A stretch of 64,000 nucleotides of DNA from an uncultured Alphaproteobacteria bacterium (GCA_963763485.1 CAVXOW010000008.1:121464-185463); one strand, 5' to 3'; shown: positions 43,860 through 61,626, counted from the stretch's first letter. The notes: generated by a model not told the origin, from the sequence alone. A program made the numbers and translations.

Positions 43860-45397
43860 GCGACGACGGACCAGCCGGCGCACTGCCGCCGCACGACGCG
43901 GCGAACACCGTTCGCGCGCGGCGGCTCGGCATCGACACGCAATACGAAGCCATCATCTTCATGCACAAGGATTGCCGGGTCTGCCGCTCGGAAGGCTTTG
44001 CCGCGCTGACCCGTGTCCTGCTGACAGCCAATGGCCGCAGAGTCATCGCGACGCTTTACCAGATCACGAGCCCGCTGGTCCGTCCTGACGAGGCCATCCT
44101 GTCCGAGTCGGCCTGGAAGCGGCTCGCCCTGAAGGACGGCGAGCACATCACCATCGGCCATCCGCCGCAGCTCGATTCACTGAGCCATCTGCGCAGCCGC
44201 ATCTACGGCAACGACTTAAGCGAGCCCGCCTTCCATGCCATCATCGGCGACATCGTCGACGGCCAGTATTCCGACATCCACCTGTCGTCGTTCCTGACCG
44301 CCTGCGCCTCGCCGCCGCTGAACCACCAGGAGGTGCTGGCGCTTACGCACGCAATGGTCGAGGCCGGCGATCGCCTGAAATGGCCGGCCGGCACCGTCGC
44401 CGACAAGCACAGCGTCGGCGGCCTGCCCGGCAACCGCACGACGCCGATCATCGTCCCGATCGTCGCAGCGCTCGGCATCATGATGCCGAAGACCTCGTCG
44501 CGCGCGATCACTTCGCCTGCCGGCACCGCCGACACCATGGAGACCATGGCGCCGGTCGATCTCGACAACGATGCGATCCGGCGCGTGGTCGAGCGCGAAG
44601 CCGGCTGCATCGTCTGGGGCGGTGCGATCAATCTCAGTCCGGCCGACGACATTTTGATCCGGGTCGAGCGCGCGCTCGATATCGACAGCGAAGGACAGAT
44701 GATCGCCTCGGTGCTGTCGAAGAAGATCGCCGCCGGCTCGACCCACGTCGTGCTCGATCTGCCCGTCGGCCCGACCGCGAAGGTGCGCACCGCGCGCGCT
44801 GCGCAGCAGCTCGCGGACGGACTGACCAATGTCGGCGCCGAGTTCGGGCTGAAGACAAGGATTGTGCCGGGCGACGGGCTGCAGCCGATCGGCCGCGGCA
44901 TCGGTCCCGCGCTCGAAGCCCGCGACGTGCTTCAGGTACTGCGCGGCGAGGCCACCGCGCCGCAGGATTTGCGCCAGCGCGCGCTCGCGCTGGCCGCCGC
45001 GCTGCTGGAGCTCACCGAGATCTGCCCAGCGGGCCGCGGCGAAGCGATCGCGGCCGATGTGCTCGACAGCGGACGCGCCTGGCGCAAGTTCCAGCGCATC
45101 TGCGAGGCCCAGGGCGGGATGCGGACACCGCCGGTCTCGCGCCAGCAGCGTCCCGTGCTCGCCGAGCGGCCGGGCAAGGTGCGCGCGATCGACAACCGCC
45201 GCATTGCGCGGCTCGCCAAGCTTGCCGGCGCACCGGACGACAAGGCCGCCGGCATCGACATGCATGTGCGTGTCGGCGACCTGGTCGCGAGCGGCCAGCC
45301 ACTGTGCACGGTCCACGCCGATTCGCCGGGCGAACTCGCCTATGCGTTCGACTTCGCCGAGGCCAACCGCGACATCATTGCGGTCGGCGAGCCATGA
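43856..45397 (+). CDS. thymidine phosphorylase family protein, long type with N-terminal extension (AMP-phosphorylase-like)
   Basis: The ORF 43319..45397 is trimmed to the ATG at 43856, which overlaps the MBL stop (ATGA). It is 513 aa with the glycosyl-transferase family 3 core (DKHSVGGLPGNRTTPIIVPIVAA, KTSSRAITSPAGTADTME, SVLSKKIAAG) after a ~90-aa N-terminal domain. Confidence 0.85.
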   Translation: MSDDGPAGALPPHDAANTVRARRLGIDTQYEAIIFMHKDCRVCRSEGFAALTRVLLTANGRRVIATLYQITSPLVRPDEAILSESAWKRLALKDGEHITIGHPPQLDSLSHLRSRIYGNDLSEPAFHAIIGDIVDGQYSDIHLSSFLTACASPPLNHQEVLALTHAMVEAGDRLKWPAGTVADKHSVGGLPGNRTTPIIVPIVAALGIMMPKTSSRAITSPAGTADTMETMAPVDLDNDAIRRVVEREAGCIVWGGAINLSPADDILIRVERALDIDSEGQMIASVLSKKIAAGSTHVVLDLPVGPTAKVRTARAAQQLADGLTNVGAEFGLKTRIVPGDGLQPIGRGIGPALEARDVLQVLRGEATAPQDLRQRALALAAALLELTEICPAGRGEAIAADVLDSGRAWRKFQRICEAQGGMRTPPVSRQQRPVLAERPGKVRAIDNRRIARLAKLAGAPDDKAAGIDMHVRVGDLVASGQPLCTVHADSPGELAYAFDFAEANRDIIAVGEP

Positions 45398-46296
45398 CAG
45401 CGCCCATGCTGATTGCGATGCCCGGCAACGAAGCCATGGCGCAATCGATCGCACGCATCCTCGGCGCCGATGTGGGCCAACTCGAGCTGCGCGCATTTCC
45501 CGACGGCGAGGCCTACCTGCGTTTCGCCACCGAGCTTAAGGATCGCCGAATCGCGCTGGTCTGCACGCTCGATCACCCCGATGCGAAGATGCTGCCGCTA
45601 CTGTTTGCGGCCGCTGCCGCGCGCGACCTCGGCGCCAGTCAGGTCGGTCTGGTCGCGCCCTATCTGGCCTATATGCGGCAAGACCGCCGCTTCAAGCCGG
45701 GCGAAGCCGTGACCTCACGCGAGGTCGCGCGACTGTTGTCGGGCGCGTTCGACTGGCTGGTCACCGTCGATCCGCACCTGCATCGTTACACGTCGCTTGC
45801 CGAGATCTATCGCATCCCGACGCGCGTCGCCCATGCCGCCCCACTGGTATCGCAATGGATCAAGGCCAACGTACCGCAGGCGCTGGTGATCGGCCCCGAC
45901 GGCGAGAGCGAGCAGTGGGTTTCCGCCGTCGCCAACGATGCCGGCGCGCCGTTCACCGTGCTTCAGAAGGTCCGCAATGGCGATCGCGACGTCGAGATCA
46001 CCATGCGCGATCTCGGGCAACTCGGCGAGCGCACGCCGGTGTTCGTCGATGATATCATCTCATCAGGCCGCACCATGGCCGAGGCGGTTCGGCTGGTGGC
46101 CGCCCGCACCCCGCAGCGTCCCGTCTGCATCGCCCTGCACGGGCTGTTCGCCGACAACTCCGACCGGCTGCTGTCGGCCTCGGGCGCGCGCATCGTCACG
46201 TCCAACACGGTCACCCACCCGAGCAACGCCCTCGACGTAGCGCCACTGCTGGCTGCAGGCGTTGGCGAACTTGCACAAGCACCGCCGCCCACGTAG
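45394..46296 (+). CDS. ribose-phosphate pyrophosphokinase-like protein
   Basis: The ORF 44380..46296 is trimmed to the ATG at 45394 (ATGA overlap). It carries Prs-like motifs (AFPDGE, APYLAYMRQDRRF, VDPHLH, VDDIISSGRTM). Confidence 0.8.
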   Translation: MTAPMLIAMPGNEAMAQSIARILGADVGQLELRAFPDGEAYLRFATELKDRRIALVCTLDHPDAKMLPLLFAAAAARDLGASQVGLVAPYLAYMRQDRRFKPGEAVTSREVARLLSGAFDWLVTVDPHLHRYTSLAEIYRIPTRVAHAAPLVSQWIKANVPQALVIGPDGESEQWVSAVANDAGAPFTVLQKVRNGDRDVEITMRDLGQLGERTPVFVDDIISSGRTMAEAVRLVAARTPQRPVCIALHGLFADNSDRLLSASGARIVTSNTVTHPSNALDVAPLLAAGVGELAQAPPPT

Positions 46297-46322
46297 ACCG
46301 TCGCGGGGACGTGGCGGGCGGA

Positions 46323-46982
46323 ATGAAACTGATCATCTTCGACTTCGATGGCACGCTGGCGGACAGTCGCAACCTGATCATCGAGGCGCACCGGCGGGTG
46401 TTTTCCCAATTCGGACTGCCGGTGCCGCCCCCGGAAGCGAGCCTCGCGCTGATCGGGCGCTCGCTCGAGCTAGTGCTCGCCGAACTCGCCGGACCCGATG
46501 CGCCGGTCGCGGCGATGACGACGGCCTATCAGCCGGTCGTGAAGCAGCTGCGCGCCGATCCCGCATTTGCCGACCTGCCCTTTGCCGGCGTCAATGAGCT
46601 GCTCCTCGAGCTGGGGGCACGGAAAGACCTTCGTCTCGGCATCGCCACCGGGCATATCTCGAGCGCGATCGAGCCGGCGCTTGCGACATTCGGCTGGCGC
46701 GAGCTGTTCTGCACCGTACAGAGCGCCGACAAAGCGCCGTCGAAGCCGCACCCCGGCATGATCCTGCAGGCGCTCGCCGAGGCCGACACCGCAGCCGACG
46801 ATGCCGTCATGATCGGCGACACCGCCTTCGACATGGAGATGGCGCGCGCGGCCGGTGTTGCCGCGGTCGGCGTCGCCTGGGGTTATCATCCGCGCGATCG
46901 GCTTATCGCGGCAGGTGCGGACGGGGTCGCCGAGACGATCGAGGATTTGCGCACGCGGCTGCTGGACGGAGGCGATCGCTAA
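46323..46982 (+). CDS. HAD family hydrolase (phosphoglycolate phosphatase-like)
   Basis: Motif I is IIFDFDGTLADS and motif IV is MIGDTAFDMEMARAAG. The start is ATG 46323 or GTG 46311. Confidence 0.8.
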   Translation: MKLIIFDFDGTLADSRNLIIEAHRRVFSQFGLPVPPPEASLALIGRSLELVLAELAGPDAPVAAMTTAYQPVVKQLRADPAFADLPFAGVNELLLELGARKDLRLGIATGHISSAIEPALATFGWRELFCTVQSADKAPSKPHPGMILQALAEADTAADDAVMIGDTAFDMEMARAAGVAAVGVAWGYHPRDRLIAAGADGVAETIEDLRTRLLDGGDR

Positions 46983-47141
46983 GCTGATTCTCTAGCACTG
47001 GAATGCCTTCGGCGTTCCGGAGCCAGCCGAGCATCTCCGAAAAAAAGCACATCGGAGTGCAAATAGAACGGCATTGGCGTACGGTCCTCCGTCCAGGGGT
47101 CAGGGAGAGCCCCCGCGCAAAACTCGCAAGGGGCAGTCAAG

Positions 47142-47525
47142 ATGAAATCAGCATTGGTCGCAGCGGCCGCCATGACGGCGCTGTCGCCGGTCTCAACTGC
47201 GCTCGCACAGACCCAGTTGCCGACGACGACCATCGTCGCGCCGAAGCCCAAACCAAAGCCGGCTGTGGTGACTCGTGCAGCACGATCGGACTCGGTGTCG
47301 ATCATGCCGGAGCATCCGGACCCTGAAACACCCCATGTCCGCGCCAAGGACTGGAATGCGCCCGGCGTGATGAACCTGAACTACATGACGGAAGCGCAAT
47401 TCGTGGCATTTCAGGCCGCGCACCCCACCGCGGTGTTCTGGGGACGCTGCTATGCGGGCCAGGATCCCGACCTCAATATCCGGGCCTTCCTGAGGCGTCG
47501 GGTTCCGTTCGGTTGCGGCGGCTGA
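47142..47525 (+). CDS. exported hypothetical protein
   Basis: 127 aa with the signal peptide MKSALVAAAAMTALSPVSTALA and a Pro/Lys linker (PKPKPKP). I recognise no family. Confidence 0.5.
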   Translation: MKSALVAAAAMTALSPVSTALAQTQLPTTTIVAPKPKPKPAVVTRAARSDSVSIMPEHPDPETPHVRAKDWNAPGVMNLNYMTEAQFVAFQAAHPTAVFWGRCYAGQDPDLNIRAFLRRRVPFGCGG

Positions 47526-47658
47526 CGGCTCGGAACCGCTCCGAAGTTGCAACAGAACAAGCGAGGGCTTTTCCGGTTTGAAATTCCCACCCGGATTGGG
47601 CACAAACCATCCTGCGCGGCCAGTGCGCCATCTTTCATTCAAAGCGGAACGCGCAAAT

Positions 47659-48427
47659 ATGCGACGTCAATTCGCGGTGCTGTTGGGAACACTCGCCCTG
47701 TTGGCGCCTGAGGTGGCGCTGGCGCAGGTTCCGAGCGAGCTGCTGCCACGGAACCTGTCGCCATGGGGCATGTTCCTCAACGCCGACATCGTGGTCAAAG
47801 CCGTGATGGTGGGGCTTGCCCTCGCCTCGCTGGTGACCTGGACGGTGTGGCTCACGAAAACCATCGAACTGCGGCGCGAGACCACGCGCGCGAGACGGCG
47901 ACTTCGCGTGATCGAGCAGGGCGGCGCGCTGCGCGACGCCGTCCGCGCCTGCGGCAGCGACACCGACGCCGTCGCCCAGCTCATCCTGTCGACGGCACGT
48001 GAGAGCGAGCTGTCGGGCGGCACGTTCGACGCGGATTTCAAGGAGCGGGTGGCGCTGCGGCTCGAGCGGGTCGAGGCGGCGATGCAGCGCCAGATTTCGC
48101 GCGGCATCGGCGTGCTGGCGACGATCGGCGCCACGGCGCCGTTCGTCGGCCTGTTCGGCACGGTGTGGGGCATCATGAATTCGTTCATCGGCATCTCGGA
48201 ATCCCACACCACCAACCTCGCCGTGGTCGCGCCCGGCATTGCCGAGGCGCTGCTCGCCACCGCCATGGGCCTGGTCGCCGCGATCCCCGCGGTCGTGATC
48301 TACAACCATCTGGTCCGCGTCATCGGCGGCTACCGCGCGTTGCTCGGCGACGCCTCGGCGCAGCTGCTCCTGATGATCAGCCGCGGACGCACCGACCGCG
48401 CGCCGGTCGGCGCGCGCCGCGGAGTAG
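47659..48427 (+). CDS. exbB: ExbB (MotA/TolQ/ExbB proton channel); no in-frame stop, reads through into exbD
   Basis: The ORF 47578..48960 is trimmed to the ATG at 47659 (signal-peptide type ExbB). The channel motif is [42 protein letters not shown]. The expected stop TAG at 48425..48427 is only in the +1 frame. Confidence 0.75.
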
Positions 48428-48432
48428 CTGTC

Positions 48433-48869
48433 ATGGCTGTGCGGCTCGGCTCGCGTTCCGGCGGCGACGACCTCGAAGTCCAGCACGAGATCAACGTCAC
48501 GCCGTTCATCGACGTCATCCTGGTGCTCCTGATCATCTTCATGGTGGCGGCGCCGCTCGCGACCGTCGACATCGGCGTCAACCTGCCGTCGAGCACCGCG
48601 CCGCGAACAGCCGCGGCCGGACAAGCCGGTATTCGTGACCGTCAAGCCCGACGGCACCGTCGCGGTCGGCGAGACGATGGTGACGCGCGAGACGCTGTCG
48701 CCGGCGCGCTCGATACCGCCACCAACAATCACAAGGACGAGGTGATCTTTGTCCGCGGCGACAAGGAGCTGGCCTACGGCGACCTGATCGCAGGTCATGA
48801 ACCTTTGCGCGACGCCGGCTACCTCAAGCTCGCGCTGGTCGGGCTGGAAGCGGCCCGGCAAAGCCATGA
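48433..48869 (+). pseudogene. exbD: ExbD/TolR with at least two internal frame changes
   Basis: The N-terminus [32 protein letters not shown] is in frame 1. The middle part [29 protein letters not shown] is in frame 2 (about 48600-48700). It returns to frame 1 as [27 protein letters not shown]. The likely natural stop TGA at 48867..48869 is in frame 0. Confidence 0.7.
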
Positions 48870-49620
48870 CAGCGCTGGCGCTGCATTTTCCGGAACGGCG
48901 CGGGATCACGCGCTGGATGCTCGCCGCCGTGGCGATCGTCATCGCACATGGCGATCGTGATCGGCGCGCTGGCGCTGTGGTATACGCGCGCACCGCCGGA
49001 GGAGAATCTCATTCCAGCGATCGTGGTGAGCATCGTACCGGCGGCGCCACTGTCTCCGATGGAAAACGATCAGCCAGTCGCGGCCGAGCAAACAACGCAT
49101 ATCGATCCGACGCCCGAGCCGTCCAAAGTCGAGACGAAGGTCGAGCCGCCGCCGGAAGAGATCAAACCTCCACCGCCACGCCCGGCGGAGATCGCTCTTC
49201 CGAAGCCAGAGCCAAAGCCGGTCGAAAGAAAATCCGTCGAAAAGAGGCCTGTCGAAAAGAGGCGCGTCGAAAAATTGTCTCCGCCGCAGGAAGCGCACGA
49301 GAGGGCTGCGGCGCGCGAAGCCTCGCGACAATCGAGCGTCGCGGCTTCGAACAACTACAATTCACTGGTCATTGGGCAGCTCGAACGCGCCAAGGGATAC
49401 CCGCCGGGCGGCGCCGACTGGAAAAACCTCCGTGGCGTTTACGGTCAGCAGTGCGGGCAGCCTCTTGGATGTCCATGTCACGAAGTCATCGGGCAATTCA
49501 ATTCTCGACCAGGCAGCGCTCGACATCGTGCGGCGTGCATCGCCCTTTCCGCATTTCCCGCCGGAGATGACTCAACCGCAGACATCGTTTTCCTGGGAGC
49601 GATACTTCGCGGCGCGCTGA
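48866..49620 (+). pseudogene. tonB: TonB energy transducer with two frame changes
   Basis: The N-terminus [28 protein letters not shown] is in frame 2. The TM and Pro-rich spacer ([38 protein letters not shown]) are in frame 0 from about 48950. The C-terminal domain (GKTSVAFTVSSAGSLLDVHVTKSSGNSILDQAALDIVRRASPFPHFP) is in frame 1 from about 49410. Confidence 0.7.
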
Positions 49621-50939
49621 GGCGCTAGGCGATTTGCCCGCTCGAACTGGCGCAGCAGGCGGTTGCCGCGCTCGGCCGCGGCATCGAGCGCCTGCTGCGC
49701 CGTCTTCTTGCCGGAAAAGGCCTGCTCGAGCTCGTCCTCAATGGCGGCGCGGATCAGCACGAACGAGCCGAGCCGGAGGCCTCTCGAATTGTCGGTCGGC
49801 GGCTTGTAGGTGATCTGCTCGATCGAAATCGCGGTGCCGGGATTGCGATCGTAGAAGCCTTGCGCGCGGCGTCAGTTCGAAGGCGGCGCGCGTGATCGGA
49901 AGATAGCCGGTTTTCTGGTGCCACCAGGCCTGCACGTCCGGCCGCGACAGGAAGGCGAAGAAACGCGCGACGCCTTTGTATTCGTCTGCCGGCCGGTCGC
50001 GCAGCACCCACAGCGTGGCGCCGCCGATGATCGTGTTCTGCGGCGCGCCGGGAACGTCGGGCCAGTACGGCATCATGCCGTAGCCGACCTGAACTTGCCT
50101 TGGCGAGGATGTCGGCGCGCGTCGCCGACGAGCCGAGGAAGATGCCGCACTCGCCGCGCTGGAAGCGCGGCTCGGCCTTGGTGTCGCGGCCGCTGTAGTC
50201 GAACAGCTTGGTCTTCTGCCACTCGGCGAGCTTGCCGATGTGGCGGACCTCGAGCGGATTGTTGATGGTGAGCAACGCATCGAGCCCGCCGAGGCCGTTG
50301 GCTGCGCGTCGCGACCGGCAGTTGTGAAGCGCGGAGAAATTCTCGACGTTGACCCAGGACGGCCAGTGCGTGGTGAAGCCGCAGGCCGCGCCTGACGCGC
50401 GCAGCGCTGCGGCCGCGACGCCGACCTCGGGCCAGGTTTTCGGCGGAACGTCCGGGTTGAGGCCGGCGGCGCGAAACAGCTGCTTGTTGTAATAGAGGAT
50501 CGGGGTCGACGAGTTGAACGGAAACGACAGCATGTTGCCGGCGACGTCGGTGTAATAGCCGGTGACCGCGGGCAGATAGGCGCTCGGGATCGAACGTCTC
50601 CTTCGCATCGCGCATCAACTCGTACACCGGATAGATCGCGCCCTTCGCCGCCATCATCGTCGCGGTCGCGATCTCGTTGACCTGGACGATGGCCGGCTGG
50701 GTCTGCGAGCGGAAGGCGAAGATCGCCGCCGTCGTAGTCTCGGTGTAGTTGCCCTTGTAGACCGGGACGACGCGGTAGTCCGACTGGGTCGCGTTGAAGT
50801 CGGATGCGAGCTTTTCGAGCTGGCGGCCAAGCTCGCCCGGCATCGCGTGCCACCAGATCACGTCCGTCGTGGCCAACGCCGGCGCCGCATGCATCAGCGC
50901 CATGAACACGGCCGCGACCTTCAGCGTGAAATTCCGCAT
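49572..50939 (-). pseudogene. extracellular solute-binding protein family 1 (UgpB-like), at least four frame changes
   Basis: The N-terminus [33 protein letters not shown].. (ORF 50073..50939) continues in other frames. The successive segments are [80 protein letters not shown] and [52 protein letters not shown] possible lost stop lies at about 49626. No cognate permease or ATPase genes are adjacent. Confidence 0.65.
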
Positions 50940-51196
50940 GTCCCTTCGACGCCGTCAAAGCGCCGCCTGCCCTGTGCCGCAAGCCGGCCCGCGATCGGAC
51001 ATCGCGGTGGTCGGGCCGTGCGGTAGCAAACCTTTGAAATAACTCGCTAATCGTACGGCGCCGCGTGCCCCTGCGCCGACCGCGGCCGTAAGCCCCCTGC
51101 TCCGTTTGCCATTCCGTCGTTTGGTGACCGGACAGCCGCGATCTCCCGATAGCAAAACCGGCGTCCATTCGATAGAGTTTCGTCGCGGTCAAAGTC

Positions 51197-51210
51197 TTGA
51201 GAAGACGCAA
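51197..51210. promoter_or_regulatory. FixK2-type box TTGAGAAGACGCAA
   Basis: Matches TTG(A/C)-N6-(T/G)CAA. It ends 67 nt upstream of the DctP-like GTG start (51277). Confidence 0.4.
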
Positions 51211-51230
51211 CGTTTCGCCGCGGGCGAGAC

Positions 51231-51276: not shown

Positions 51277-52266
51277 GTGCAAACGGCGAGACATCTGGTC
51301 TTCCAGACTGTCGCGGTCTTGTGGGCGGCCGTCATGTTTTCGGCGGCGCCGGCGGACGCGCGCGAATTCCGGGCCGCGGACACCCAGGCCGAGGATTATC
51401 CGACGGTCCAGGCCCTGAACTACATGGGCAAGCTGATCGCCGAGCGCACGAACGGCCGCCACCAGATCAAGGTGTTTCACAGCCGCCAGCTCGGTGAAGA
51501 GAAGGAAACCATCGAGCAGACCCGGGCCGGCGCCATCGACCTCAATCGCACCAACGTGGCGCCGATCGGCGAGTTCGTGCCGCTCGCCAATGTGCTGGCG
51601 ATGCCGTTCCTGTTCCGCTCGATCGATCACCTGCACAGCGTGCTGGACAGCCAGATCGGCCAGGAAATTCTGGACAGCTTTGCACCGCACGGCTTTGTCG
51701 GGTTGACCTATTACGACTCCGGCGCACGCTCGATCTACGACAGCGTGCGGCCGATCAAGTCGGTCGCCGACATGAAGAACCTCAAGATCCGGGTTCAGCA
51801 GTCCGACCTGATGGTCAAGATGATCAGCGCGCTCGGAGCCCAACCGATCGCGATGCCCTATGGCCAGGTGCTCACCGGCCTCGCTACCAAGCTGATCGAC
51901 GGCGCCGAGAACAACTGGCCCTCCTTCGTCACCACAGGCCATTTCAAGTACGCCGGCTACTACACGCTGACCGAGCACACCATGTCGCCCGAGGTACTGG
52001 TCATGTCGCGCAAGGCCTGGGAATCCTTAACTCCCGACGATCAGAAGATCTTCAAGCAGGCGGCGATGGAATCCAACATCTACATGCGCGAGCGGTGGAA
52101 GGCGCTCGAGGACAGGTCACGCCGCGAGGCCGAGGCCGCCGGCATCATGATCATCAAGGACTTCGATCGCAAATCGTTCGAGGACGCGATGGGCGCCATT
52201 TACAAGGAGGCGGCGAACGATCCCGCCATCGCCCGATACGTCGACCGCATCAAGAAAATGCAGTGA
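51277..52266 (+). CDS. TRAP-type DctP family solute-binding protein (no DctQM partners nearby)
   Basis: 329 aa with a GTG start and a signal peptide ending APADA. It shows the DctP-family pattern ([53 protein letters not shown]). Confidence 0.8.
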
Positions 52267-52278
52267 CCGGTTAACCCC

Positions 52279-55200
52279 GTGAATTCCGAGGGCGACAACA
52301 CCGAAGACGACATTGCGACGCGGAGCCGCTCCAGCCTCGTCAGCCTGGTGCGCGCGATCCCGATCCGCTGGCGCATCCTGTCGATCGCCGCGTTGAACTC
52401 GGCCGTGGTGCTGGTTCTTGCCGCGATGATCTGGAACGGCGCGCGTGTGCTGTCGTCGGCATGGGACGAAGTGCGGCAGGTCCGCGAGTCCGATCGTATC
52501 CTCGCGATACTGGAGAGCGAGACCAGCCGGCTGCAGAACCTGATTCACCGCTACATCAACCAGCCCAATCCGGAAGTGTTCGCGGAGATTCTGCTGTTGC
52601 GCGAAGCCGTGCTCGGCACGCTCAACACCCGCGCCTCGACCGATCCGATGCTGGCCGGCTCGGTGCAGGAGCTCGAGCGCGTCACCGAAAAATTCCTCGA
52701 CGGCTTCGGCGAGGTGCGCGGCCTGCAGAACCAGATCGCCAAGACCTACGAGGAGCAGGTGCTGACCCCTGCCCGCGACATGGGCGGGCTTTATGCGATC
52801 ATCGAGGGCGCCAGCAAGCGCGACTCGCTGATCGTGCCGGCGCTCAGCAAATCGCGCGAAGCCTTCACCTCGATGCTGGTGGCGGCCAACGCCTACTACC
52901 TTTCGCTGTCGACGGAGTCGGCCGACGAAGCGAGCCGCAACGCCGATACCATCGAGAACACCATCCCCGTGATGATCGATCTCGCCGAAGCCGACCTACA
53001 GAAGCTCGCGCTGCAGCGCCTCAGCCAGCGCACCACCGCGTTGCGCCAGGGGCTTGCGGCGCTGTCCGAACAGTTCACTGCGCGCAACAATTTGCTGCGC
53101 ACCACGATCGACGCCAACCAGGCAGCGACCATTGCCGCGATCGACGGGCTGTCGGTGAACATGCGGCAGCGTGAATTGCAGGCGCAGGACAAATTCGACC
53201 AGACGCTGGCCGATATCTCGACGCGGGTCGGCACCATCGCGCTGGTGTTCCTCGCCGTGATCGTGATCGCCGGCGTCATCATCGCGCTGTCGATCCGGCT
53301 GCCGCTGCAGCAGATCATGGCAGCGATGCACGCGATCACGACCGGCGATCTGGGCCGCCGCGTGGCTGGCACCGAGGCAAAGGACGAGGTCGGCGCGATG
53401 GCTCGCGCGGTCGAGGTGTTTCGCGAGAACGCCATCGCCAAGCGCCAGGCCGAGGACGATCTGCGCGCCTCGAAAGAGCGCGCCGAGAACGCCCTGAGCG
53501 AGCTGCGCGCGGCACAGCAAAACCTGATCGATGCGGAACGGCTTGCCGCGCTCGGCGGCCTCGTCGCCGGCGTCGCGCACGAGGTCAACAACCCGATCGG
53601 CATCAGCCTCACGGTGGCGTCGAGTTTTGAGCGGCGCACGCAGCAGTTCCAGGACGAGCTGAAGTCACAGGCGCCATTGCGCCGCTCGCAACTCGAGGAG
53701 TTCGTGCGCGTGTGCGTCGATGCGGCTCAGCAGCTGGTGGGCAATTTGACCCGGGCCGGCGAGCTGATCAACTCGTTCAAGCAGGTCGCGGTCGATCGCT
53801 CGCATGCCGAGCGGCGCTTGTTCGACCTGCAGGAAGCGACCGAGCAGATCGTCGCGAGCCTGCGTCCGGTGCTGAAGAAGTCGTCGGTGGCGCTTGAGCT
53901 GAACATTCCCGAAGGCCTGATGGTCGATTCCTTCCCCGGCTCCTATGGCCAGGTGCTGACCAACCTGTTCCTCAATGCCTCCAATCACGCCTTCCCCGAC
54001 GGCCGTCCCGGCATCATCCGGCTCGACGCGCGGCCACGCGGCAACGACGAGATCGAGATCATCTTCGCCGATGACGGCGCCGGCATGTCGGCGGACGTGA
54101 TGCGGCAGGCGTTCGATCCATTCTTCACCACCCGCCGCAACGAAGGCGGCACCGGGCTCGGCCTGCACATCGTCTACAACCTGGTCACCCAGCAAATGGG
54201 CGGGCGGATGATGCTCGAATCCAAGCCGGGACAAGGCACGACGTTTCGCATTATCATGCCGCGCGCCGCGCGCGCGACCGAATTCCAGCACACACAGCTT
54301 TGGGACCACGCAATGGCCGACCAGGACGATGTCCTCCAACTGATCGAAGACGACGTCCGACCGGCACAGACGGGCTCGGAGCGGAAATGGAAGATCGCGG
54401 TCATCGACGATGATGCCGCCGTCCATGAGGGCACGCGCTTTGCGCTCAGCGATTACAGCCTGAACGGCCAGACGCTGGAAATTCTCTCGGCCTATTCGGC
54501 CGCGGAAGGCCGCGCGCTGATGAGCGCGCACGACGACATCGCGGCGGTGCTGCTCGACGTCATCATGGAGACCGACTCCGCCGGCCTCGAGCTCGTCGAA
54601 TACATCCGCAACGAACTGAGGAACGAGACCGTACGCATCATCCTGCGCACCGGCCAGCCAGGCCAGGCGCCGGAGCGGCGCGTGATCGTCGACTACGACA
54701 TCAACGACTACAAGGCGAAGACCGAGCTCACCGCCGACAAGCTGTTCACCTCGCTCACCGCGGCGCTGCGCAGCTACCAGCAGCTCGAGCGCATGGTGCA
54801 GACCCGGCGCGGGCTGGAAATCATCATCGATGCGGCGTCCACCCTCTACGACTTCAAGTCGATGCAGCGGCTTGCCGAAGGCGTGCTGACCCAGATCGCG
54901 TCCCTGCTCAATGTCGACTGCGCCGGCATTCTGGTGCTGCGCGACAGCCGCGACGTCAACAAGGCATTTTCGGTGCTGGCCGGGTCCGGCTGCTACAGCA
55001 AGTTCCTCGCGACCAATGGCGGCCAGCCGCTCGACAGCGAGTTGCAGACGCTGGTGCAATCGGCGTTCGAGCGCCGCAAGCACGAATTCGTCGATCATCG
55101 GTCGGTGCTCTACATCAAGACCGCGAGCGACCGCGAGGTGGTCGTGCTGCTGGAAGCCGCGAAAGACCTGTCCGATACCGATCGCTCGCTGGTCGAGATC

Positions 55201-56058
55201 TTCGGCAGCCGGCTGTCGGTCGCGTTCGACAACGTGATCCTTTACCAGCAGCTGCAGGAGGCCAACACGCAGTTGGAAGATCGCGTCGCCCAGCGCACCA
55301 AGGCGTTGATGGCGGCGAACCGGCGCCTGTCGGCGCAGTGGCTGCGCCTGCAGCGCGCCAACTCGTTCAAGAACGAGATCCTTGGCACCGTCGCACACGA
55401 CTTGAAGAACCCGCTCGGCGTCATCCTCGGCCGCACCGAGATGCTGAAAGAACTGGTCGGCGGCGCGATGGCCTCGAAGGACGGCGCAATCGCCCAGGTC
55501 GATCACATCCGCGACGCCACCAAGCGCCTGACCTCGATGGTCGACCGGTTGATCTCGGATGCGATGGCCGACGCCTTCGACATCACGATCCGCCGCGAAG
55601 CGGTCGACATTTCGGCGCTGGTGCAGGAAATCGTCTCGGCAAACCAGCCCTCCGCGGCGAACAAGCAGCAAACCATCACCGTGTCAGGCTCGCCGGAGCA
55701 GGTGACGATGTGCGACGCCGACCGCATGCGCGAGGCGATCGACAACCTCGTCAGCAACGCGATCAAGTACTCGTCGGTCGGCGGCAAGATCGTACTCGGC
55801 GTGACGCATGTCGACGGCCAGTTGCTGATCAACGTCACCGACAATGGCGCAGGCCTTTCGCCTGAGGATTTGAGCCGCCTGTTCGGCCGATTCCAGCGGC
55901 TGTCGGCAAAACCCACCGGCGGCGAAAGCTCGACCGGGCTCGGGCTATCGATCGTCAAGCGCATCATCGACATGCACGGCGGCAAGGTGTCGGCGACCAG
56001 CGCCGGCCCGGGCAAGGGCGCGACCTTCACGATTGCCTTGCCGGCGACGGCCAACTGA
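52279..56058 (+). CDS. hybrid sensor with two histidine-kinase cores: TM-sensor-TM-HAMP-HK1-REC-GAF-like-HK2
   Basis: 1259 aa. TM1 is at about aa 30-52 and TM2 at about aa 318-340, followed by a HAMP domain. H-box 1 is VAGVAHEVNNP (His codon 53578..53580) with the ATPase motifs DDGAGM and GGTGLGLHIV. The receiver carries Asp in LLDVIME (54556..54558). A GAF/DUF3369-like segment follows. H-box 2 is LGTVAHDLKNP (His codon 55396..55398) with the ATPase motifs DNGAGL and STGLGLSIVKRI. Confidence 0.85.
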   Translation: MNSEGDNTEDDIATRSRSSLVSLVRAIPIRWRILSIAALNSAVVLVLAAMIWNGARVLSSAWDEVRQVRESDRILAILESETSRLQNLIHRYINQPNPEVFAEILLLREAVLGTLNTRASTDPMLAGSVQELERVTEKFLDGFGEVRGLQNQIAKTYEEQVLTPARDMGGLYAIIEGASKRDSLIVPALSKSREAFTSMLVAANAYYLSLSTESADEASRNADTIENTIPVMIDLAEADLQKLALQRLSQRTTALRQGLAALSEQFTARNNLLRTTIDANQAATIAAIDGLSVNMRQRELQAQDKFDQTLADISTRVGTIALVFLAVIVIAGVIIALSIRLPLQQIMAAMHAITTGDLGRRVAGTEAKDEVGAMARAVEVFRENAIAKRQAEDDLRASKERAENALSELRAAQQNLIDAERLAALGGLVAGVAHEVNNPIGISLTVASSFERRTQQFQDELKSQAPLRRSQLEEFVRVCVDAAQQLVGNLTRAGELINSFKQVAVDRSHAERRLFDLQEATEQIVASLRPVLKKSSVALELNIPEGLMVDSFPGSYGQVLTNLFLNASNHAFPDGRPGIIRLDARPRGNDEIEIIFADDGAGMSADVMRQAFDPFFTTRRNEGGTGLGLHIVYNLVTQQMGGRMMLESKPGQGTTFRIIMPRAARATEFQHTQLWDHAMADQDDVLQLIEDDVRPAQTGSERKWKIAVIDDDAAVHEGTRFALSDYSLNGQTLEILSAYSAAEGRALMSAHDDIAAVLLDVIMETDSAGLELVEYIRNELRNETVRIILRTGQPGQAPERRVIVDYDINDYKAKTELTADKLFTSLTAALRSYQQLERMVQTRRGLEIIIDAASTLYDFKSMQRLAEGVLTQIASLLNVDCAGILVLRDSRDVNKAFSVLAGSGCYSKFLATNGGQPLDSELQTLVQSAFERRKHEFVDHRSVLYIKTASDREVVVLLEAAKDLSDTDRSLVEIFGSRLSVAFDNVILYQQLQEANTQLEDRVAQRTKALMAANRRLSAQWLRLQRANSFKNEILGTVAHDLKNPLGVILGRTEMLKELVGGAMASKDGAIAQVDHIRDATKRLTSMVDRLISDAMADAFDITIRREAVDISALVQEIVSANQPSAANKQQTITVSGSPEQVTMCDADRMREAIDNLVSNAIKYSSVGGKIVLGVTHVDGQLLINVTDNGAGLSPEDLSRLFGRFQRLSAKPTGGESSTGLGLSIVKRIIDMHGGKVSATSAGPGKGATFTIALPATAN

Positions 56059-56093
56059 CTGACACGATCGACAGCAAAGAGACACCACGAGCG

Positions 56094-56819
56094 ATGACCC
56101 AAAGCCAGCACATCTTCGTTGTCGACGACGAGGCGCCCGCCCGCGAGATGGTCGGCGATTATCTCAAGATGCACGGCTTTGCGGTGACGCTGTGCGACGG
56201 GGGAAAAAGCCTGCGCAAGGAGATCGAGAAACAGGCGCCGGACCTCGTGGTGCTCGATCTCAACATGCCGGAGGAAGACGGGCTATCGATCATTCGCGAT
56301 CTCAAGTCGCGCATCAATGTGCCTGTGATCATGCTGACAGCAACCGCAAGCCCGATCGACCGCGTCGTCGGCCTCGAACTCGGCGCCGACGACTATCTCG
56401 CCAAACCGTGCGAGCTGCGTGAGCTGATGGCGCGCATTCGCTCGGTGCTGAGGCGCAGCGCACCGGCCAAAGCCGCAGCGCCGGCCGAGGCCAACAAGAA
56501 GGAGATGGTGCGGTTCGGCACCAAGTGGCTGAACCTCGAAGCACAGACGCTCGAAGACGACGAGGGCAACGAGCACCCGCTGACGGCATCTGAATTCGGC
56601 CTGCTCAAGGTGTTCGCAGCGAACCCCAAGAGAGTGTTGTCGCGCGAGCGGCTGCTCGAGCTTGCCAATGCACGAGATAGTGAAGCGTTCGACCGCGCGA
56701 TTGACCTGCGCATCATGCGGATTCGCCGGAAAATCGAGCCTGACCCGTCACGCCCTGCCGTTATTCGCACCATCCGGGGTGGCGGTTACGTGTTTTCGCC
56801 GATCGGGGACAAGGGCTGA
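56094..56819 (+). CDS. OmpR/PhoB family response regulator
   Basis: 241 aa. It has a receiver (HIFVVDDE..DLVVLDLNMPEEDG) and a winged-helix output domain (LTASEFGLLKVFAANPKRVLSRERLL..IRTIRGGGYVF). Confidence 0.9.
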   Translation: MTQSQHIFVVDDEAPAREMVGDYLKMHGFAVTLCDGGKSLRKEIEKQAPDLVVLDLNMPEEDGLSIIRDLKSRINVPVIMLTATASPIDRVVGLELGADDYLAKPCELRELMARIRSVLRRSAPAKAAAPAEANKKEMVRFGTKWLNLEAQTLEDDEGNEHPLTASEFGLLKVFAANPKRVLSRERLLELANARDSEAFDRAIDLRIMRIRRKIEPDPSRPAVIRTIRGGGYVFSPIGDKG

Positions 56820-57053
56820 TCGGCTTGACCCGAATCGGGACCCATTGAAATAATTGAGTTTTTTCTCTTATTGTTTCTTCGCTGCACTTGCGAAAGAAAT
56901 AAATTCCGTCCGCCACGAAACCATTTTCCGCCTCTCACGCAGAGTTCCTGAAACCGGAGCTGGCTACCAATTCGCCCAACGGACGCGCTGTCGCAGCCAA
57001 GTTTACGCAGGCTGCGCCTGCTACGGCGCGGGAAGGAATTGGGAGAAGTCAGC

Positions 57054-57668
57054 ATGCAGACCACCTTCGCAGCCAACCGGGCCTCTGCCAGGAACGGCCT
57101 TATCGCTGCCCAGGCGACGTCGGACGAGATGCTGCTTGAGGGCATCGCCGGCGGCGAAAAGGCCTCGATGCACGTGCTCTATGCCCGTCACAATGTGCGG
57201 GTGTACCGTTTCATTCTGCGGATTGTCAGCGATGCCACGATTGCCGAGGACCTGGTCAGCCAGGTGTTTCTCGACGTCTGGCGCACGGCCGGCCAGTTCG
57301 AGGGCCGCTCGCAGGTTTCGACCTGGCTGTTGGCCATTGCCCGTTTCAAGGCGCTGACCGCGCTGCGTAACCGCAAGCACGAGGACGTCGACCAGGACGA
57401 AGTGCTGGCGATCCCGGATACCGCCGAGAACCCGGAAGCCTGCATGAACCGCAGCCAGACCTCAGAGAGCCTGCGCAGGGCGGTCGAGCAGCTCTCCCCG
57501 GCGCACCGCGAGATCATCGACCTGATCTATTACCACGAGAAGTCGGTAGAAGAGGTCGGCCAGATCATCGGCATTCCGCAGGCAACCGTGAAGACCCGCA
57601 TGTTCTATGCCCGCAAACACCTCGCCCAGCTGTTGAAGCAGGCCGGCATCGACCGCGCCGCAGCCTGA
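57054..57668 (+). CDS. ECF-type RNA polymerase sigma-70 family factor
   Basis: The ORF 57039..57668 is trimmed to the ATG at 57054, after GGGAGA. Region 2 is DLVSQVFLDVWRTAGQFEGRSQVSTWLLAIARFKA and region 4 is SVEEVGQIIGIPQATVKTRMFYARKHL. No recognisable anti-sigma gene is adjacent. Confidence 0.85.
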   Translation: MQTTFAANRASARNGLIAAQATSDEMLLEGIAGGEKASMHVLYARHNVRVYRFILRIVSDATIAEDLVSQVFLDVWRTAGQFEGRSQVSTWLLAIARFKALTALRNRKHEDVDQDEVLAIPDTAENPEACMNRSQTSESLRRAVEQLSPAHREIIDLIYYHEKSVEEVGQIIGIPQATVKTRMFYARKHLAQLLKQAGIDRAAA

Positions 57669-57874: not shown

Positions 57875-58069
57875 ATGATCAAGCTTCGCTTCCTGCTCAT
57901 CCCGCTGGGTGCAGTCGCCACGATCGCCGCGCTCGCGACCCAGACCGCTTCCCACGCCACCACCCGCGAGCCGGTCGTTGCCGTGATGACCGAACAGGTC
58001 GTCACCTGCACCGACGAGAACCGCAACACCGTCGACATCTGCATCGTCGCCGACAGCGTTTCGCACTGA
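57875..58069 (+). CDS. small exported peptide with two cysteines
   Basis: 64 aa, RBS AAAGGGGA. The signal peptide MIKLRFLLIPLGAVATIAALATQTASHA precedes a 36-aa mature part containing TCTDENRNTVDIC. A strong terminator follows. Confidence 0.45.
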   Translation: MIKLRFLLIPLGAVATIAALATQTASHATTREPVVAVMTEQVVTCTDENRNTVDICIVADSVSH

Positions 58070-58323: not shown

Positions 58324-58647
58324 ATGACCAACCGCATTGCGCTCATCCTGTCGGCGGCGACGCTTTCTCTCGGCCTCGCGCTCGCGCCCACCGCGTTCGC
58401 CCAGGACGCCACGAAGAAGGACACCATGTCGAAAGACTCGATGTCCAAGGACTCCATGTCGAAGGACTCGATGAAAAAGGACAGCATGTCCAAGGATTCG
58501 ATGTCGAAGGACAGCATGAAGAAGGATTCGATGTCCAAAGACGCGATGAAGAAGGATGATGGCATGAAGAAAGATGATGCCATGAAAAAGGACGACGGCA
58601 TGAAGAAGGACACGATGTCCAAGGATGCCATGAAGAAGACGAACTGA
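58324..58647 (+). CDS. exported Met-rich pentapeptide-repeat protein (MXKDX repeats)
   Basis: 107 aa. The signal peptide ends TAFA-QD. The mature ~80 aa consist almost entirely of M-(S/K)-K-D-(S/T/A/D) units (KDSMSKDSMSKDSMKKDSM...), with 14 Met. Confidence 0.8.
   Translation: MTNRIALILSAATLSLGLALAPTAFAQDATKKDTMSKDSMSKDSMSKDSMKKDSMSKDSMSKDSMKKDSMSKDAMKKDDGMKKDDAMKKDDGMKKDTMSKDAMKKTN
58411..58638 (+). repeat. in-frame 15-nt tandem repeat (ATG-xxx-AAR-GAY-xxx) with a few 18-nt variants, coding for the MXKDX units
   Basis: About 14 consecutive units can be read directly in the sequence, for example ATGTCGAAAGACTCG ATGTCCAAGGACTCC ATGTCGAAGGACTCG ATGAAAAAGGACAGC. Confidence 0.85.
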
Positions 58648-60279: not shown

Positions 60280-61626
60280 ATGTTCGCTGCCATCGACGCT
60301 GTAGCTCTGGCACGCGCGCAGTTCGCGTTCACGATGACGTTTCACATCGTGTTCCCGGCGTTCTCGATCGGGCTCGCAAGCTATCTCGCGGTGCTCGAAG
60401 TGCTGTGGCTGTGGACCGGCCGCGCCGTGTTCCTCGACCTGTTCAAATACTGGCTGAAGATCTTCGCCATTGCGTTCGGCATGGGCGTCGTCTCCGGCAT
60501 CGTGATGTCCTACCAGTTCGGCACCAACTGGTCGGTTTTCTCCGACAAGACCGGTCCGGTGATCGGCCCGTTGATGGCCTATGAGGTGTTGACTGCGTTC
60601 TTCCTCGAGGCCGGATTTCTCGGGGTCATGCTGTTCGGCATGGAGCGGGTCGGCCGCACCTTGCATTTTGTCGCAACACTGATGGTCGCGATCGGCACGC
60701 TGATCTCGGCATTCTGGATTCTCTCGGCGAATTCCTGGATGCAGACGCCGGCGGGCTACACCATCACCGCGGATGGCCAGTTCTATCCCGCCGACTGGCT
60801 CGCCGTGATCTTCAACCCGTCGTTTCCCTATCGCCTCGTGCACATGGTGCTCGCAGCTTACTTGACAACGGCGCTTGTGGTCGGTGCGACCGGCGCGTTT
60901 CATCTGTTGCGCGACTACGCCAACGAAGCCGCCCGCGTGATGTTCTCGATGGCGATGTGGATGGCTGTGCTGGTGGCGCCCATCCAGATCATCGCCGGCG
61001 ACCAGCACGGCCTCAACACGCTCGAACATCAGCCGGTGAAGATCATGGCGATGGAGGGCCATTTCGAAAGCCATCCCGACGGCGCGCCGCTGATCCTGTT
61101 CGGCTGGCCGAACCAGGAGGCCGCGCGCGTCGACTATGCGCTCGAAATCCCGAAGGCCGGCTCGCTGGTGCTGAAGCACTCGCTCGACGCGCCGCTCAAA
61201 GGTCTCGACAGCGTGCCGCGCGAGAACTGGCCCAATGTGCTGCTGCCGTTCTGGGGTTTTCGCATCATGGTCGGAGCCGGGCTGCTGATGCTGCTGCTCG
61301 GCGTTGTCAGCCTGTACCATCGCTGGCACGGCAGCCTTTACGAATCGACGCTGCTGCACTGGTTTGCGCTGCTGATGGGGCCAATGGGATTTGTCGCCGT
61401 CATCGCCGGCTGGTTCGTCACAGAAACCGGGCGGCAACCGTTCACGGTCTACGGCCTGCTGCGTACCGCCGAATCCGCGTCGCCGTTGGCCTTACCTGCC
61501 GTGGCCTCATCGCTTGCTGCGTTCGCGATCGTCTATTTCACGGTGTTCGCGATCGGCGTGTTCTACCTGCTCAAGGCGATGGCGACGCCGCCGCATCGCG
61601 GCGAGGAAGGACCGGACACGGCATGA
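60280..61626 (+). CDS. cydA: cytochrome bd-type ubiquinol oxidase subunit I (short Q-loop / CIO-like length)
   Basis: 448 aa. It begins MFAAIDAVALARAQFAFTMTFHIVFPAFSIGLA and contains the GRQPF motif (TETGRQPFTVYG). Confidence 0.9.
   Translation: MFAAIDAVALARAQFAFTMTFHIVFPAFSIGLASYLAVLEVLWLWTGRAVFLDLFKYWLKIFAIAFGMGVVSGIVMSYQFGTNWSVFSDKTGPVIGPLMAYEVLTAFFLEAGFLGVMLFGMERVGRTLHFVATLMVAIGTLISAFWILSANSWMQTPAGYTITADGQFYPADWLAVIFNPSFPYRLVHMVLAAYLTTALVVGATGAFHLLRDYANEAARVMFSMAMWMAVLVAPIQIIAGDQHGLNTLEHQPVKIMAMEGHFESHPDGAPLILFGWPNQEAARVDYALEIPKAGSLVLKHSLDAPLKGLDSVPRENWPNVLLPFWGFRIMVGAGLLMLLLGVVSLYHRWHGSLYESTLLHWFALLMGPMGFVAVIAGWFVTETGRQPFTVYGLLRTAESASPLALPAVASSLAAFAIVYFTVFAIGVFYLLKAMATPPHRGEEGPDTA

Follow-up and report, generated by a model that had tools for sequence, protein, structure and literature searches.

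A probable four-gene signalling operon, dctP-hk1-hk2-rr, next to an ecfQ orthologue in an uncultured alphaproteobacterium

The dctP-hk1-hk2-rr gene cluster

The region described here occupies positions 51277-56819 of a 64,000-nt stretch of DNA from an uncultured Alphaproteobacteria bacterium (GCA_963763485.1 CAVXOW010000008.1:121464-185463), the whole of which is referred to as the window. An earlier note on this DNA, made from the sequence alone, had described the region as a DctP-family binding protein gene, a gene for a single 1259-aa sensor with two kinase cores and an internal receiver, and an OmpR-type regulator gene. The reading favoured here, with moderate confidence when taken as a whole and including a signalling cascade, is that the region is a four-gene signalling operon, dctP-hk1-hk2-rr, and not a single double kinase. 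The operon is a variant built of known parts rather than a new kind of system. Of the earlier description, the domains are real while the single polypeptide probably is not, and the feature 'two kinases in one protein' is not to be taken as real.

All four genes are on the plus strand. The first, dctP (51277..52266), encodes a periplasmic solute-binding protein of the DctP (TRAP-type) family with a signal peptide (Pfam and NCBIfam matches), and is followed, at the 12-nt spacing noted before, by a continuous open reading frame (ORF) of 1259 aa (52279-56058). Read natively, this ORF comprises hk1 (52279..54343; native stop TGA at 54341-54343), the gene for a membrane sensor kinase, and hk2 (54313..56058; conserved ATG at 54313, translated MADQDD...), the gene for a soluble REC-DUF3369-HisKA-HATPase_c protein. 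The two frames are joined at a 2-nt gap site (54282..54283), seen by comparison with the closest relative (locus L009) and with members of the same 90%-identity cluster. The last gene, rr (56094..56819), encodes an OmpR-family response regulator (Response_reg + Trans_reg_C by Pfam; best NCBIfam match, OmpR).

Domains were assigned by Pfam and NCBIfam profile scans, the long ORF being scanned both whole and in pieces. Species-representative genomes were scanned for relatives, and 80 loci were fetched. The operon occurs in 505 of these genomes, for example in Bradyrhizobium, Tardiphaga, Afipia and Rhodopseudomonas. In Afipia sp. P52-10 the order is DctP, HK1 (695 aa), REC-DUF3369-HisKA-HATPase (583 aa), OmpR-type regulator and sigma factor of the extracytoplasmic function (ECF) type, and the two kinase genes lie in different, overlapping frames. 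A distant relative (L084) has the same order, dctP-hk1-hk2-rr, with identities of 52% for HK1, 53% for HK2, 62% for DctP and 67% for the regulator, and its four genes are all joined by 1-4-nt overlaps (dctP/hk1, 1 nt; hk1/hk2, 4 nt). Since both the gene order and the overlapping junctions are kept at this distance, the operon appears to be old and translationally coupled.

HK1 and HK2 as separate proteins

A protein search with the 1259-aa ORF returned hundreds of ~694-aa homologues with 75-79% identity, whose matches are confined to the first 52% of the query. The claim of one double kinase does not hold for the relatives, in which one gene encodes HK1 (~690 aa) and another REC-DUF3369-HK2 (~581 aa). 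They are split in every one of the 58 complete isolate or short-read loci, and also in 17 loci from long-read metagenome-assembled genomes (MAGs). The geometry is identical in 70 loci: counted from the A of the HK2 start codon, the HK1 stop starts exactly 28 nt downstream, which gives a 31-nt overlap. The HK1 tail in relatives reads ...QWP(N/T)RTMSS(T/N)*. The native state for the family is two proteins, HK1 and HK2.

Fused ORFs were found only in six long-read MAG loci (L002, L003, L005, L008, L010 and L011). All six bear 1-7 more frameshifts in dctP, hk1, hk2, rr or ugpB, and hk1 and hk2 are split in all 14 long-read loci that are without frameshifts. The six share a common in-frame linker and were considered as a natural-fusion clade; this was rejected, as each has further frameshifts. 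The 'triple fusion' of L005 and L011, which takes in the regulator as well, likewise points to frameshifts in these contigs. At these two loci the hk2 ORF runs into the response regulator gene (9015-11561 in L005; 9019-11511 in L011). The C-termini of HK2 are frameshifted in L003, L005, L008 and L010, and these contigs carry many indels.

The fusion in the window is probably an assembly artefact, caused by a 2-nt indel in an error-prone assembly. A genuine fusion in this strain, in which a recent 2-nt deletion would have produced a functional 1259-aa HK1-REC-GAF-HK2 protein (a 'Rosetta stone' fusion), is unlikely. It would agree with an ORF that is uninterrupted and whose linker, TEFQHTQLWDHA, connects two intact modules, and it would be topologically harmless because both joined ends are cytoplasmic. 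Two further observations speak for it and weigh against an artefact: the 2-nt gap lies outside any homopolymer, in a variable linker (a hypervariable stretch with neighbouring substitutions), and the 5.5 kb from dctP to rr hold no other uncompensated indel. Against this stand the absence of the fusion from the 58 accurate assemblies, the confinement of fusions to contigs with other frameshifts, and several features of the window and its closest relatives.

The closest relative, L009 (95% identity in aa, 91% in nt), has the two genes split, and the window differs from it by the 2-nt gap at 54282/54283, after which 60 nt are identical between the two. The old-frame HK1 tail has been kept perfectly: translated in the shifted frame, the sequence beyond the gap yields NSSTHSFGTTQWPTRTMSSN*, exactly as in the tails of P0272 and P0273, and the native hk1 stop is reached only if the 2 nt at 54282/54283 are restored. 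The exact 1259-aa sequence is known from one 1.26-Mb contig only. The other members listed in its 90%-identity cluster come from independent metagenome contigs and are separate HK1 (688-691 aa), separate HK2 (580-581 aa) or shorter fragments.

The same window also joins exbB and exbD by a 1-nt indel, a C at 48411 that L009 lacks, and its ExbD, part of which is frameshifted, scores 57 bits vs 99.6 in L009. The C-terminal domain of TonB is out of frame. The ugpB gene is split over four frames in the window and intact in L009, Afipia, Tardiphaga and L013; it shows a pattern matching that of the kinase genes, with a net 2-nt loss at 50091/50099. These frame-breaking indels lie within 7 kb of the gap. 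L009 has frameshifts of its own, in cydA and in a thymidine-phosphorylase-like gene. Because each carries frameshifts, the contigs of both the window and L009 look like imperfectly polished long-read assemblies.

Domains and catalytic residues of the kinases

The domains named in the earlier note (DctP, HAMP, two kinase cores with H434 and H1040, a receiver with D760, DUF3369 and an OmpR-type regulator) were all found. Residues are numbered along the 1259-aa ORF. HK1 has two transmembrane helices (TM1, aa 31-52; TM2, aa 316-338) around an all-helical periplasmic region of ~263 aa (aa 53-315), which agrees with the previous description. These are followed by a HAMP domain (aa 335-384), a HisKA-like domain, seen as a weak match within the segment aa 341-685 and carrying H434 (codon 53578-53580), and a HATPase_c domain (aa 557-662). 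HK2 begins with a Response_reg domain (aa 706-816; 32 bits) with D760 (codon 54556-54558), then has a GAF-like DUF3369 (aa 826-992; 151-156 bits), a HisKA domain (aa 1031-1098) with H1040 (codon 55396-55398) and a HATPase_c domain (aa 1146-1257).

Both kinase cores were checked for loss of catalytic residues across ~76 orthologues and both are intact, their H, N, G1, F and G2 boxes being invariant or nearly so. The same applies to the receiver residues DD710-711, D760, T791 and K814. The H-box of HK1 had been assigned to the DctB/FixL type, which is imprecise. In NCBIfam, the HK1 core (residues 406-667) gives its best profile matches to AtoS (202 bits) and ZraS (192 bits), both far under the equivalog cut-offs, and DctB and FixL are not among its top 25 matches.

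Three cysteines of HK2, C881 and C905 in DUF3369 and C1145, are invariant in 77 orthologues, a closely related set in which invariance is weak evidence. They could matter if the REC-DUF3369 module senses redox, given the oxidative-stress neighbourhood.

The binding protein and the periplasmic sensor domain

DctP is a clear member of its family (Pfam PF03480, 281 bits, cut-off 23.4; NCBIfam TRAP_S1, 242 bits, cut-off 50). As stated before, it has no DctQ/DctM partner in the 64-kb window. This was examined through the window ORFs of at least 120 aa with at least 3 hydrophobic segments. All of them belong to other families, namely BPD_transp_2 (ABC permeases), Cation_efflux (CDF), ExbB, DsbD-like and cytochrome bd, so that no DctQ or DctM is encoded in the window. 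Nor were DctQM genes paired with DctP found within 7-8 kb in L001-L003 and L084. The closest solved structures to DctP are 4N8Y (E 6e-99), then 4MHF/4MIJ and 4X8R. Of these, 4N8Y is galacturonate-bound and 4X8R glucuronate-bound (PMC11668362), and the alignment shows identity in the motifs around GARS and NNWP. Since its nearest solved relatives are uronate-bound, the best guess from sequence for the DctP ligand is a sugar acid such as a hexuronate.

The periplasmic domain of HK1 (52435..53223, plus strand) gave no match in sequence searches of Pfam and PDB, and only fold comparison was informative. It was modelled with AlphaFold2 as a six-helix bimodular bundle (pLDDT 80). Foldseek matched this model to the ligand-binding domain (LBD) of McpS (2yfb/2yfa, TM 0.60), the TorS sensor domain (3i9y, TM 0.59) and PilJ (7zjr). 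The domain is therefore predicted to have a helical bimodular (HBM-like) fold of the TorS/McpS class, which by the model is the class through which TorS docks its binding protein TorT. According to a 2021 review of binding proteins in signalling, TorS senses via TorT and McpS binds organic acids directly.

The earlier note had made DctP an obligatory co-sensor of the kinase. This does not fit the relatives. dctP is the first operon gene, close upstream of hk1 and co-directional with it, in ~57/83 loci, but it is missing in ~26/83, including all Tardiphaga isolates, where the gaps are only 216-940 nt. Six of the dctP-less loci retain decayed fragments of 25-97 aa, and the persistence of these remnants indicates that dctP is ancestral and has been lost repeatedly. 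The HK1 periplasmic domain is equally well conserved with dctP (mean pairwise identity 0.872) and without it (0.866), so DctP is not required for persistence of the sensor. The best description of DctP is that of an accessory input and not of the sole sensing route.

It is a distinct possibility that DctP is no co-sensor at all, and that the HBM-like domain of HK1 binds the ligand itself, with DctP being a regulated target or serving a distant DctQM. The repeated loss of dctP without relaxation of the periplasmic domain is consistent with this, as is the top fold match, the McpS-LBD, since HBM domains of the McpS type take organic acids directly; together with the number of dctP-less loci, these observations tell against a sensory role for DctP. 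The 2021 review also names no DctP-family protein among its pairs of binding protein and sensor kinase. On the other hand, dctP is still first in the operon, with a 1-nt overlap with hk1, where HK1 is only ~52% identical, and in that locus (L084) DctP is better conserved, at 62%, than either kinase. No DctQM genes lie within 7-8 kb at any inspected locus, and TorS, whose fold also matches strongly, uses a binding protein to signal. The pathway proposed below retains an accessory role for DctP.

The divergent upstream SBP_bac_1 gene was also considered as the true co-sensor. It is UgpB at the equivalog level (556 bits), the simplest reading being a housekeeping neighbour, and this candidate was set aside. 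As a conserved divergent neighbour, ugpB is syntenically more constant than dctP.

A possible kinase-to-kinase relay

A receiver with DUF3369 in front of a kinase had been regarded as a rarity, which the survey of the family contradicts. The REC-DUF3369 family comprises 2388 50%-identity clusters at E<=1e-30, and nearly all of its best 150 representatives have REC-DUF3369 at the N-terminus as a receiver module. A sample of 75 diverse representatives had as outputs GGDEF (28), HD or HD-GYP (~18), HATPase_c (13), SpoIIE (3) and cyclases (3). The arrangement is also in the literature: Galperin and Chou call DUF3369 GAF-like and mention its occurrence in histidine kinases. Since both the family survey and Galperin and Chou catalogue it, the receiver placed before a kinase is a recurring, uncharacterised design.

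The serial relay proposed in the earlier note, from HK1 through the receiver and the GAF-like domain to HK2 and the regulator, remains plausible and is the most economical reading, as the catalytic sites are intact and the genes coupled; it would not take place within one protein. The obligatory DctP co-sensor and the architectural novelty that were claimed with it are not supported. HK1 may phosphorylate the receiver of HK2, as is suggested by the 31-nt and 4-nt gene overlaps and by the conserved co-occurrence of the genes. One observation weighs against the relay, and that is a relative at ~50% identity with a REC-DUF3369-HK/RR pair that has no adjacent HK1 or DctP. It suggests that HK2 and the regulator form a core into which various first kinases can be plugged.

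Gene structure, domains, conservation of catalytic residues, coupling, predicted fold class and synteny were established here; the pathway that follows is inferred in all its steps. HK1 would sense a periplasmic signal, with DctP, where present, acting as a TorT-like accessory co-receptor that is probably loaded with a sugar acid; in genomes without dctP, HK1 would sense directly or via an unlinked partner. Phosphorylated HK1 would then phosphorylate D760 of HK2. Through DUF3369, the phosphorylated receiver would switch autophosphorylation of HK2 at H1040, and the GAF-like DUF3369 may add a cytoplasmic input. HK2 would phosphorylate or dephosphorylate the OmpR-type regulator, which would bind the conserved GAAAC repeats and control the adjacent ecfQ gene. 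That the kinases instead act in parallel, HK1 and HK2 both phosphorylating the regulator with the receiver of HK2 serving as a phosphate sink or as an auto-inhibitory element fed by HK2 itself, would suit an operon with only one DNA-binding regulator and the existence of REC-DUF3369-HK/RR pairs without an adjacent HK1, but is quite improbable given the tight and conserved hk1-hk2 coupling, the N-terminal position of REC as an input module, as in REC-DUF3369 proteins with GGDEF, HD-GYP and other outputs, and the AtoS/ZraS-like core of HK1, which is unlike the HK2 type and suggests a different partner specificity.

Comparison with known systems

A search of the literature on bll1029-bll1032, on TRAP binding proteins as kinase co-sensors and on DUF3369 found no characterisation of a dctP-hk1-hk2-rr system; a paper on PahP/PahK is unrelated. 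The most similar system is TorT-TorS-TorR, which senses trimethylamine N-oxide (TMAO) in E. coli and Vibrio. It also has a binding protein without a transporter of its own, encoded beside the sensor kinase, a stacked, helical, HBM-like periplasmic bundle in TorS, and an OmpR-family output, TorR being among the best profile matches of the regulator described here. It differs in that TorT belongs to Peripla_BP_1 and not to the DctP/TRAP family, and in that TorS is HK-REC-HPt in one protein, whereas here the receiver is on a second protein, feeds a GAF-like domain and a second kinase, and there is no HPt. DctP, in contrast to TorT, is dispensable in a third of the loci.

The step from one kinase to the next has a counterpart in the CheA3-CheS3-CheY3 pathway of Rhodospirillum centenum (PMC3868531), in which a REC-kinase is phosphorylated on its N-terminal receiver by the first kinase. 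CheS3, the second kinase, alone phosphorylates the final regulator CheY3 (PMC3868531). That system is driven by chemoreceptors through a CheA, CheS3 has PAS rather than DUF3369, and its output is a single-domain CheY and not an OmpR-type regulator. The REC-DUF3369-HD-GYP regulators (the RpfY family of Galperin and Chou, e.g., VCA0210 and DVU0722) share the N-terminal receiver and the GAF-like DUF3369 with HK2, but end in an HD-GYP domain, while the HisKA + HATPase_c output of HK2 is a catalogued yet uncharacterised variant.

ChvE-VirA-VirG of Agrobacterium is similar in that a protein binding sugars and sugar acids (including galacturonate and glucuronate) co-senses for a kinase that controls an OmpR-family regulator. 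VirA-like and VirG profiles gave sub-threshold matches here. However, ChvE belongs to Peripla_BP_4 and also serves an ABC transporter, and VirA has a dCache-like periplasmic domain and no second kinase in its pathway. In structure, the HK1 periplasmic domain comes closest to the HBM ligand-binding domain of the McpS chemoreceptor (2yfb), with which its sequence identity is 14%. The McpS domain is a direct receptor of malate or succinate, and its output is a chemoreceptor and not a kinase.

The regulator and ecfQ

Beyond rr, on the same strand, are an ecfQ-type promoter region (56872..56976; motifs as in PMC3420878), which is a candidate binding region for the regulator, and a gene for an ECF sigma factor (57054..57668; Pfam Sigma70_r2/r4), an orthologue of EcfQ (Bll1028, ECF33). 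The sigma factor matches NCBIfam PRK12515 with 328 bits, above the cut-off, while the NCBIfam matches of the regulator, OmpR (236 bits), TorR (199) and VirG (199), are all under cut-off. The downstream gene order, RR-ecfQ-DsbD-like-thioredoxin, corresponds to locus bll1026-bll1029 of B. japonicum USDA 110, and by synteny the regulator is the orthologue of Bll1029. In USDA 110 these genes encode the regulator Bll1029, EcfQ (Bll1028; ECF33, without an anti-sigma factor), the DsbD-like Bll1027 and the thioredoxin-like Bll1026 (Masloboeva et al., PMC3420878). The ecfQ gene is induced 35-fold by H2O2, and its promoter has conserved GAAAC boxes at -26, -59 and -80 that were ascribed in 2012 to a 'yet unknown transcription factor' (PMC3420878).

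The boxes of the window, all on the plus strand, are TGTTTC (56872-56877), GAAAC (56917-56921) and GAAAC (56950-56954), with a -35-like GCAGAG (56939-56944) and a -10-like TACCAAT (56965-56971). The rr-ecf spacers of 65 loci have these conserved promoter elements in common, and the regulator and sigma factor genes are adjacent in nearly all loci. As the boxes are spaced 21 and 33 bp apart, all three lie on one face of the helix. A scan of the operon for promoters and terminators gave nothing above chance except promoter-like hexamers in this rr-ecfQ spacer.

ecfQ is the probable output gene of the operon, and we infer that the adjacent OmpR-type regulator is the missing ecfQ transcription factor; no paper testing it in this role was found. 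It counts against this assignment that the operon genes are outside the listed H2O2-induced set of USDA 110.

Two GTTTCG(T/C)CGCGG repeats, 35 nt apart, occur upstream of dctP (51178-51223) and are similar to the -80 box of ecfQ in its left arm. Autoregulation through GAAAC boxes in front of dctP was considered and rejected, as such boxes are not conserved there and the GTTTCG repeats occur only in the window and L009.

Two small secreted proteins are encoded downstream of ecfQ on the plus strand. One, of 64 aa and with two cysteines (57875-58069), lies directly 3' of ecfQ and is conserved in Afipia (L001 13531-13719). The other, of 107 aa (58324-58647), is encoded between ecfQ on one side and the DsbD-like and thioredoxin genes on the other. 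It has about a dozen methionine-rich repeats of the KDSMSKD type and a homologue in Afipia (L001 14010-14234), and is similar to the sacrificial periplasmic peptides, rich in methionine and of the MrpX type, that act in hypochlorite defence.

Other features of the window

Upstream of dctP, ugpB (49629-50939, minus strand; sn-glycerol-3-phosphate binding protein) has three frameshifts at about 49870, 50090 and 50590, and is intact in all relatives. The exbB and exbD genes are read as one 460-aa ORF (47578-48960, plus strand), next to a further ORF at 48948-49628 on the same strand. About 2.1 kb (45391-47485) containing ribose-phosphate-pyrophosphokinase-like and HAD hydrolase genes are absent from the otherwise syntenic L009. 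On the other side of the operon, CydA (60280-61626, plus strand) is 448 aa long vs 466-468 aa in most of the 90%-cluster members listed. An extra G at 61621 relative to L009, near the C-terminus of CydA, is probably another indel.

Significance of the operon

For annotation, the kinase genes of the window are a caution: long 'multi-kinase' ORFs in long-read metagenomes can stem from single indels at overlapping gene junctions. A more far-reaching proposal is that dctP-hk1-hk2-rr is the missing regulator of ecfQ, that DctP would be the first TRAP-family binding protein shown to be purely a signalling co-receptor, and that a sugar-acid or oxidative-damage cue is relayed from kinase to kinase via a REC-GAF-like switch; taken as one, these claims are speculative and rather doubtful. 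If they were true, the DctP family would be added to the few binding proteins that feed sensor kinases, and HK2 would be the first functional example of a kinase driven by a REC-DUF3369 module. The steps are testable in B. japonicum/diazoefficiens USDA 110, where the genes are presumably bll1032-bll1029, a numbering taken from synteny in which only bll1029 is named in PMC3420878. The importance of the system rests mainly on the link to ecfQ, for the control of which the operon is a concrete candidate, and on the possible signalling role of a TRAP-family binding protein.

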